A DNA stretch of 64,000 nucleotides, from the NCBI RefSeq assembly GCF_022045235.1, contig NW_027266275.1, forward strand, positions 36,084,001 through 36,148,000, in the 5' to 3' direction. The notes under the pieces were generated by a model, which had not been told where the DNA came from, searched no databases, and saw only the letters and a list, made by a program, of their open reading frames with translations. Numbering within the stretch: the stretch's first letter is position 1; each line of letters begins with the position of its first letter. The stretch comes from Haliotis cracherodii (taxonomy: Eukaryota). This document shows, piece after piece, positions 6,901-9,219 of this stretch. A program made the translations under genes and the position numbers.

Positions 6901-9219
6901 TTTGAATTTTCTGTTATATATTCAGATGCAAGACAACACGTCACTTCGTTGGCCACGAGAAGGATGTCATGAGTGTTGCTTTCTCTGCTGACAACAGACA
7001 GATTGTCTCTGGTTCACGGGATAAAACTGTCAAGCTGTGGAACACATTGGGGGTTTGCAAGTACACCATTCAGGTGAGACAGTTTACTACTTGTTAAAAA
7101 GTGATCAGTGTTAAGCACTGAGTGGCCACTAGGTCCCAGCTTCACTTCGTTATGAGTGTTTGTTAATGACATGACTATGCTGTTTTCAGGAGGATTCACA
7201 CAAAGACTGGGTGTCTTGTGTTCGTTTCTCTCCCAACTCAACTAACCCGATCATTGTGTCCTGTGGCTGGGACAAAACCGTGAAGGTGAGATTCTCTGTT
7301 GTTTTTTTTGAATTAGAGAAAGAAATTACTTAAGTCCTTAATGGAAGACTGTAAACAGCTTTCGGCACTTTTTAAATTTGGTGAGTTATGCCGATTAGTT
7401 TAACACAAAAAAACTTGACACAGATTGGTCAGTCACAGGTTTCAAATCCTAACAACCACCTCTAAGTTCTACATTATAAACACTCAGCATATTTATCTCC
7501 TGAATGGGTCATGTTCATGCTCATGTTCACGCATACTCTAGCAGTATTACAGCTGTATTGTTCAGCCTGTTGCTATATCTAGATGCAGCATAAAGCAACT
7601 CTCTAGTTGTGATGGAAAGTGTTATTTGTACTGTCTAGGTGTGGAATCTGACTAACTGCAAGCTGAAGACCAACCACTATGGCCACACCCAGTTCCTGAA
7701 CACTGTCACCGTGTCTCCTGATGGCTCACTCTGTGCATCCGGTGGAAAGGTAGGTCCAGGGGTAGCACTCGGGAAGCGGGTTAATTGAAGCAGTTTTGTG
7801 TTTCAATATTCCTGAATCATACATGGTGTTTTGTCTAGTTATAATATAGGGGTAAAGGTGAAAATGTCAGCATGTTAAGTCTATTTGCAAACAAAAGGCA
7901 TGACTTTATTATCGGTCAGTGGATTTCCTACTTGTGAAAGTAGCTTATGTTTTGGGACATTTGTCAATGACAACATGGTTTTGCTGAGTAATGTTTAGAT
8001 AGCCGTCTGTGAAATATATCATTTAATGCCTTGAGACAAGGTACAGTGGTACAGGACTAGTCTGGTACACATGAGAAAATCAGGAAAGGAAACCATTCCG
8101 TATTCAAAACAATTTCTCTTTTTGCATCTCCCTGCAGTTTGTACTCAGCACTGAGTATACAACTTTCACGGTGATGCTACAGAAAATGTCAACAGACTTT
8201 CTGTGACTGATTTGTTGGTCAAATCTGTTGACAAACACTTCTAAATGGATGCTGCACTGGAGTTAACTCCCTTAGTTTTCATATTGCATGGATAGAAGTT
8301 GTCTGACTGATATGGATCTAGGCTTGTCTTTATACAAAGAAAGCCATTTTGATTCGTGGCTTAATTACAAGTATCACAAGGTTAATATATCCAAATTTTA
8401 CTGTTGTGGTCGAAGTATTGTATCAATGGTTGTCAAATCTCTGGTCTGATGCAACTTTGTATGATGCAACTGTGTTATTGCCAGGACGGTCAAGCCATGC
8501 TGTGGGACCTGAATGAGGGCAAACATCTGTACACCCTGGACGGCGGCGATGTCATCAATGCTATGTGCTTCAGCCCCAACCGCTACTGGCTCTGTGCTGC
8601 CACAGGACCCAGCATCAAGATCTGGGTAAGTCACAGCATGAACGACCAAAGTGTATAAATATCTGAGAAAACTTGTCAACCTGAACTTGATTAAATTAAT
8701 GATGTGGCACTTATTCTGAGAGTGACTCTAACATCAGCGCCCAGCTGTCTTATGCAACAGTCTGCATGAAATAGTTGTGATGGCTCCAAGGATTTTCATT
8801 AAGTTCATGAAGTTTATTAACGGATGTTTAAGCAGCTTTGTGCATACTGTTATTGTGGGGTGGGGTAGATTTCCAAGTGCATAAGATCTCACTGAAGATG
8901 TTTTTTGTTCAGGCCCTTCAATGGAAAAATTGGCAATGAAAGTTCTGGCATTTAGATTGAAGTAACACTAATAATAATGGCCTAGAACTTCATACTTATT
9001 CTGACTGCTGCACATTTCTCATGGTGCATGGTTGTGTTGCAGGATCTTGAAGGCAAGGTGATCGTGGATGAGCTGAAGCCAGAAGTGCTGGCCCAGAAGG
9101 CGGGACGGGAACCACCTAACTGCCTCTCCCTGGCCTGGTCTGCTGATGGCCAGACTCTGTTTGCTGGCTACAGTGACAATGTCATCAGAGTGTGGCAAGT
9201 GTCAATGGCCATGCACTGA
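3798..9219 (+). CDS. RACK1: Receptor for activated C kinase 1 (WD40 40S ribosomal protein), 7 coding exons, 319 aa
   Basis: Exons 3798-3912, 5553-5724, 6926-7073, 7190-7285, 7639-7749, 8485-8625, 9043-9219, all GT-AG, join to 960 nt with no internal stop. Sequence [25 protein letters not shown]...[23 protein letters not shown]...[15 protein letters not shown]. Confidence 0.98.
4574..4825 (+). mobile_element. tRNA-derived SINE in RACK1 intron 1 (related copies near 33060-33305 and 49798-50045)
   Basis: A-box tggcccagtcg, B-box ggttcgaatcc, tail ...aactcaatcactcac, TSD-like t(a)tgatgtgtga/taagatgtgtga. Confidence 0.7.
4770..5025. repeat. 85-bp tandem triplication (SINE tail plus flank)
   Basis: taactggaatactgttaaaagcgacg... 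recurs at 4771, 4856 and 4941. Confidence 0.92.
5553..5724 (+). CDS. RACK1: RACK1 coding exon 2
   Basis: ttcag| [19 protein letters not shown]...[12 protein letters not shown] |gtgagt, 172 nt. Confidence 0.96.
6926..7073 (+). CDS. RACK1: RACK1 coding exon 3
   Basis: [53 protein letters not shown] flanks, 148 nt. Confidence 0.96.
7190..7285 (+). CDS. RACK1: RACK1 coding exon 4
   Basis: [36 protein letters not shown] flanks, 96 nt. Confidence 0.96.
7639..7749 (+). CDS. RACK1: RACK1 coding exon 5
   Basis: [41 protein letters not shown] flanks, 111 nt. Confidence 0.96.
8124..8240 (+). ncRNA. Candidate box H/ACA snoRNA in RACK1 intron 5, predicted guide for a 5.8S rRNA pseudouridine
   Basis: Hairpin 1: gcatc/gatgc lower stem, agtt..gtactcag/ctgagtat..aact upper stem. 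H box ACAGAA at 8179-8184. Hairpin 2: perfect 10-bp tgtcaacaga/tctgttgaca stem. ACA at 8235-8237 plus 3 nt. Pocket halves cctgc (8131-8135) and ttcac (8165-8169) pair with 5.8S GUGAA-UU-GCAGG, 14 nt from the H box. Confidence 0.75.
8485..8625 (+). CDS. RACK1: RACK1 coding exon 6
   Basis: [51 protein letters not shown] flanks, 141 nt. Confidence 0.96.
9043..9219 (+). CDS. RACK1: RACK1 coding exon 7 (terminal)
   Basis: gcag| [14 protein letters not shown]...[32 protein letters not shown]. Confidence 0.96.

Follow-up and report, generated by a model that had tools for sequence, protein, structure and literature searches.

Intron 5 of the RACK1 gene of Haliotis cracherodii contains a 117-nt element that is best explained as an intronic snoRNA of the box H/ACA class, with a 5' pocket predicted to direct pseudouridylation at U72 of the 5.8S rRNA. 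The gene lies in a 64,000-nt stretch of contig NW_027266275.1 (hereafter the window, to which all positions refer). It is highly probable that the element is a real H/ACA snoRNA, and U72 is its probable target; the full reading is held with reasonable confidence. The intronic H/ACA class and the predicted target are supported by the fold, the boxes, the spacing and the presence of a pseudouridine at this site in yeasts. Literature searches returned no paper on this RNA.

Host gene and anatomy of the element

The host gene was identified from its exon translations, exon 2 matching solved RACK1 chains with an E value of 6e-38. Human RACK1 is a known snoRNA host, its first intron carrying U95 and its second U96A (PMC3941584), as the initial annotation had stated for SNORD95 and SNORD96A. 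The coordinates of the gene, the host intron and the parts of the element are collected in Table 1.

Table 1. Features of the predicted snoRNA, its host gene and related RACK1 loci
Feature	Position	Strand	Remarks
Host gene RACK1	3798..9219	+	Seven coding exons, ~319 codons; from exon translations
Host intron 5 of RACK1	7750..8484	+	GT...AG, 735 nt; from sequence and exon translations
Predicted box H/ACA snoRNA, 117 nt	8124..8240	+	Ends inferred from fold and ACA+3
5' hairpin	8124..8177	+	Lower stem 8124-8131/8170-8177, upper stem 8136-8164; folded alone, z -4.11
Pocket 1, 5' arm CCTGC	8131..8135	+	Pairs 5.8S bases 3' of the target U plus its neighbour
Pocket 1, 3' arm TTCACG	8165..8170	+	Pairs on the 5' side of the target U in 5.8S; 14 nt from its start to the H box
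H box ANANNA (ACAGAA)	8179..8184	+	Alternative register 8181-8186 would give 16 nt
3' hairpin	8187..8233	+	Internal loop 8197-8203/8222-8223 is pocket 2; folded alone, z -2.90
ACA box	8235..8237	+	After hairpin 2; 3 nt before predicted 3' end
SNORD96-type loci for the 5.8S G75 site			L030, L032, L033, L035, L036, L037, L045, L046, L049, L050, L053, L055, L061

The plus strand of the element adopts a two-hairpin fold of -38.3 kcal/mol (z -4.04), and none of 200 shuffled sequences folded as well. The fold exceeds chance expectation, and the hairpin-H-hairpin-ACA architecture first described for this stretch is confirmed with both boxes in place. The H box lies in an open hinge (unpaired probability 0.77-0.91), and the internal loops are placed 14 nt from the H box and from the ACA box alike. 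A scan of the six RACK1 introns for the hairpin-H-hairpin-ACA arrangement returned this element alone.

By established H/ACA biology, debranching of the spliced-out RACK1 intron and trimming by exonucleases would release the RNA, dyskerin/Cbf5, Nop10, Nhp2 and Gar1 would bind to the H and ACA boxes, and the unpaired U held atop the pocket would be isomerised in the pre-rRNA.

It is unlikely that the element is no snoRNA at all, its hairpins being chance or repeat-derived inverted repeats with box motifs that fit by accident. Such structures do occur, as a loose H/ACA scan of both strands of the window (128 kb) gave 104 candidates. The element ranks first among them by energy per base (-0.327), but the next two, minus-strand copies of a repeat, come close (-0.319 and -0.313). 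Its own minus strand also folds almost as stably (z -3.56), so that the strand call depends on the boxes and the host gene. Against an accidental origin stand the spacing of the internal loops from both boxes and the location in sense orientation within a gene already known to host snoRNAs. The element is also single-copy in the 1.18-Gb genome of the species, which argues against a young repeat. The conservation data considered below bear on the same alternative.

A role as a scaRNA was considered. A UGAG at 8152-8155, judged against the CAB consensus, is paired within a stem and not located in a terminal loop, and the element has no canonical target in U2, U5 or U6.

Several other features of the gene were noted. 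Upstream of the RACK1 start codon, a pyrimidine tract (3696-3720) resembles by eye the 5' TOP start that is typical of snoRNA host genes, and a short upstream reading frame appears to follow it at ~3731-3748. In intron 1, an 85-base unit is repeated in tandem about three times (4770-5030); on inspection the repeats seem to lie at the end of a tRNA-derived SINE. The same intron holds a C-box motif followed by nine bases antisense to 18S near position 423 (4076-4110), with no canonical D box suitably spaced from it. Elsewhere in the window, a weak tRNA match with a broken acceptor stem (18295-18366, minus strand; 33.9 bits) is probably the head of a SINE.

Conservation and homologue searches

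Contigs from three related species cover positions 7760-8460 (701 nt), with 16 to 22 differences each. Only one of the 27 variable sites falls inside the element, compared with 4.5 expected (P 0.046; P 0.097 once adjacent variable sites are merged into 22 events). This single change, G8209 to A in one of the species, converts a G-U pair with U8216 into A-U, which strengthens the pair and keeps the fold. The depletion and the preserved pair both favor a functional RNA over accidental hairpins. The conservation signal is nevertheless weak, because the zone of low variation runs past the element to 8331. No two-sided compensatory stem change occurs among the three close relatives. One miRNA-seq run from a related species, with reads of up to 50 nt and no exon control, placed no reads on intron 5; this is also compatible with accidental hairpins.

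Deep conservation is so far unsupported: no sequence homologue of the element was found in 80 RACK1 loci collected from metagenome contigs, a result that again lends something to the view that the element is no snoRNA. Roughly 33 of these loci show introns, and the others look like spliced transcripts. No intron-bearing locus is a close relative, given protein identities of ~76-89% among the 24 of 80 loci measured. Rfam gave no match at the gathering score in the 20 of 80 loci searched. The scores of the homologue search form a continuous tail (78, 77, 74, 72 among 2001 windows), and two candidates within it, in L017 intron 6 (z -0.87) and L029 intron 5, were rejected.

Pocket 1 and its predicted target

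All target sequences (18S, 5.8S, 28S, U5, U2 and U6) were taken from the same genome. U72 is numbered on the Rfam-delimited 5.8S copy; it is the first U of GAAUUGC and equals U73 in human and yeast numbering. Around this U, pocket 1 forms five plus five Watson-Crick pairs and one G-U with the 5.8S of the species, 14 nt from the H box, and the duplex is its best uninterrupted match in rRNA. The pairing originally proposed therefore stands in its pair count and spacing, with one reservation: pocket 1 is partly self-paired in the predicted fold, and the full form requires the innermost pair of the lower stem, C8131-G8170, to be opened at a cost of 4.9 kcal/mol. With this pair left closed, the duplex is reduced to four plus five pairs and the cost to 1.6 kcal/mol.

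Pseudouridine 73 of budding yeast 5.8S, which the initial annotation had placed at this U, is guided by snR43 (PMC8351944). In Schizosaccharomyces pombe, Psi76 is the first U of AAUUG; it was found at 76% by mass spectrometry, and its occupancy rises from 44% at 17 C to 90% at 35 C (PMC4605285). The human 5.8S modifications given in the same source are Um14, Psi55, Psi69 and Gm75, the fragment 71-AAUUGmCA appearing without Psi73, and Gm75 sits two bases from U73 (PMC4605285). In Arabidopsis 5.8S, the adjacent U is modified as Psi78 and lies next to Gm79 (PMC8351944), which indicates that a pseudouridine and a methyl group are able to coexist here.

How much the match says depends on what it is compared with. 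A match of at least 10 Watson-Crick pairs was found in 156 of 400 shuffled target sets when flexible geometry, both pockets and all targets were allowed, and a comparable pocket for some U is present in 22 of the window's 104 loose candidates. Taken alone and against all rRNA, the pocket 1 match is not beyond chance. Only 34 of 5000 shuffled 5.8S sequences were matched equally well, and a 10-pair match to U72 alone arose by chance in 55 of 3,000,000 trials per fixed pocket geometry. The match carries weight only because the site was already known to be modified. The bare pocket 1 motif occurs 216 times in the genome, and none of 20 copies fetched passed the H/ACA scan.

These figures also bear on the improbable case that the RNA is a real H/ACA RNA but its match to U72 is incidental, the RNA being an orphan or guiding another RNA. 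The frequency of equally good matches to some U among shuffled sets, the stem pair that must open and the human 5.8S described as unmodified at this U (PMC4605285) all lean that way, and the target set was confined to 18S, 5.8S, 28S, U2, U5 and U6. The rarity of equal matches among shuffled 5.8S sequences points the other way, and the top match, at canonical spacing and with both arms paired, hits a U whose modification is known from two yeasts. We retain U72 as the probable target.

Pocket 2 has no canonical target among 18S, 5.8S, 28S, U2, U5 and U6, in agreement with the earlier failure to assign one. The top-scoring matches, to 18S position 1277 (12 nt from the ACA box, invading the lower stem) and to U5 position 54 (five G-U pairs), depart from canonical geometry and were rejected. 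Pocket 2 is likely to be an orphan or structural.

Relation to known families

Assignment to an Rfam family, which had been suggested as a check, failed: no family reaches its gathering score in the region, a point that sits easily with accidental hairpins, and a 10-kb search at E up to 10 brought up none of relevance. A search over 181 nt gave nine matches at E up to 10, all weak H/ACA shapes such as SNORA35 (13.7 bits against 39) and TtnuHACA18 (16.9 bits against 100). The element is likely an intronic H/ACA guide of the ordinary kind that belongs to no Rfam family.

A hairpin of comparable logic was found in RACK1 intron 5 of one other animal (L055:5445-5515 and L051:123-193). It has a pocket for the same 5.8S U with an H box at 15 nt, but the fold as a whole is unremarkable (z 0.08), the 5' hairpin being stable (z -2.69) and the 3' hairpin unstable (z +0.8 and +1.2). 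The hairpin is absent from sister loci and was given no weight in favor of the element. The RACK1 intron 5 of this species lacks a C/D guide, unlike that of others in its group.

It is very improbable that the element is orthologous to SNORA10 or snR43 but deeply diverged, having been inherited together with its target: the predicted target U is common to Xenopus SNORA10, yeast snR43 and the element, and the L055/L051 hairpin follows a similar pocket logic, but neither SNORA10/SNORA64 (RF00264) nor snR43 is among the nine Rfam matches, pocket 2 does not suit the 18S site of SNORA10 (18S-210 is absent from its top targets), and the L055 element, without a stable 3' hairpin, is missing from sister loci. 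SNORA64/10 was likewise not found among 43 candidates scored in the genome. An independently evolved, likely lineage-restricted guide, which would have reached the site separately from yeast snR43 and Xenopus SNORA10, remains the preferred reading.

SNORD96-type guides in other RACK1 genes

The initial annotation set the element beside vertebrate SNORD96A as a snoRNA of another class in the same host gene with an adjacent target. That U96A directs methylation of the G two bases away, at Gm75, agrees with published accounts (PMC7812721; PMC4605285). The H/ACA class and the predicted target hold up; a closeness to the SNORD96A site beyond coincidence is so far unsupported.

SNORD96-type C/D guides are present in RACK1 of 13 of the 80 metagenome loci (Table 1), in introns 2-5, where a single gene can have as many as three copies. 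Eleven of these loci contain 21 elements that combine a C box ~50 nt before the 5.8S-antisense element (or a form of it that differs at one base) with CUGA. With a C/D model built from 18 of these 21, two further loci were picked up among 23 additional sources: L037 scored 48.1 bits and L049 32.9 bits. For one copy, SNORD96 was the top Rfam match, at 25.5 bits against a cut-off of 43. The guide occupies intron 5 in L030/L032, L033/L035, L036, L037, L045/L046, L050, L053 and L061, whereas intron 5 holds neither guide in L013, L016, L017, L025, L029, L049, L086 and L091; intron 5 is not special for C/D guides within this group of loci.

Exon 6 is only 81-93% identical between the C/D-bearing groups, which indicates several species, and in L055 it is one residue longer than in vertebrate RACK1, so the loci were taken as non-vertebrate. 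They apparently belong to other invertebrates. Judged from these sequences, the hosting in RACK1 of a guide for this stretch of 5.8S looks older than the vertebrates, which makes the link to SNORD96A more interesting, though it was drawn post hoc.

Other C/D-like elements were seen in these loci. Four intron-3 paralogues of the same C/D family (L036:2066-2139, L045:2636-2706, L050:2925-2995 and L055:3345-3419) pair with 18S near position 558 of the H. cracherodii 18S and not with 5.8S, and have likely been retargeted through a few base changes. RACK1 intron 6 contains sequence antisense to 18S near position 161 before CUGA in L016 (1957-1972) and L017 (1878-1961), the latter with C boxes and a terminal stem. 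A further C/D-like element, in intron 6 of L086, is antisense to 28S.

The RACK1 gene of the window has no SNORD95 or SNORD96 by Rfam, and our own C/D model with filters off reached at best 11.6 bits and no guide element, in keeping with the original report that no such sequence is present. Pattern and RF00055 searches of the genome, which cannot show absence, yielded no convincing copy of a Gm75 guide. The sole match to a C box plus guide was rejected as it lies, by eye, in an apparent coding exon. The bare 14-mer guide matches 14 times, three of them in a tandem repeat; a C-box-like motif accompanies just one of the 14, L115, at a point 78 nt upstream, and this hit was rejected, having no terminal stem and no score from the C/D model. 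The RF00055 search gave four weak matches among 50 candidates scored, none with the guide element. Separately, ten bases at 6528-6537 match the tail of the guide and the D box at the end of SNORD96; they lie in intron 2, the human counterpart of which holds U96A. The match is a single copy without a C box, set within an imperfect inverted repeat, and may be a relic or due to chance.

With C/D guides in 13 of 80 RACK1 loci, often in intron 5, and none in this gene, a replacement of C/D by H/ACA may have occurred. It would mean that a RACK1 guide for this stretch of 5.8S predates the vertebrate-invertebrate split, and that here an unrelated H/ACA guide took the place, in intron 5, of a Gm75-directing C/D guide that had disappeared. 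We regard this history as rather unlikely.

Implications and comparison with known systems

The result adds one uncatalogued H/ACA guide and predicts, in this species, a 5.8S pseudouridine that is present in yeasts and absent in human. The temperature-dependent occupancy in S. pombe (PMC4605285) makes this position worth measuring in an animal whose body temperature varies. SNORD96-type guides in non-vertebrate RACK1 would make the pairing of this host with its guide much older than the vertebrates; a literature search on such guides returned only a human study. It is interesting to speculate on what the class replacement, if true, would entail: a yeast-like 5.8S, with the pseudouridine and without Gm75, inside an animal, and a direct test, across snoRNA classes, of the idea that host genes keep guides for neighboring, cross-talking sites (PMC6984369; PMC5733568).

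The element is best filed by analogy, as a new H/ACA guide that would act in the manner of snR43 and Xenopus SNORA10, a likeness of function and not of demonstrated descent. With Saccharomyces cerevisiae snR43 it has in common the H/ACA class and the target U in 5.8S, but an Rfam search detected no sequence similarity between snR43 and the 117-nt intronic element. snR43 is also longer and independently transcribed.

A predicted guide for 5.8S-U73 is not new among animals. Xenopus tropicalis SNORA10 (SNORA10/SNORA64, RF00264) is, like the element, an animal H/ACA RNA, and is already predicted to have switched to 5.8S-U73 as a target (PMC6984369). It differs in also targeting 18S-210 (Xenopus U199), to which pocket 2 of the element does not fit. 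SNORD96A/U96A (RF00055) shares the RACK1 host and a footprint on the same stretch of 5.8S, with its target two bases off (PMC3941584; PMC7812721). In contrast to the element, it is a box C/D RNA that guides 2'-O-methylation, at 5.8S Gm75, from intron 2 of human RACK1. For the proposed replacement, the relevant parallel is SNORA25 and SNORA40. Both of these are H/ACA RNAs with mapped modifications, whereas the change proposed here crosses classes and is prediction-based; in the published SNORA25/SNORA40 case, the activity that one snoRNA had lost was assumed nearby by a second one from the same host gene (PMC6984369).
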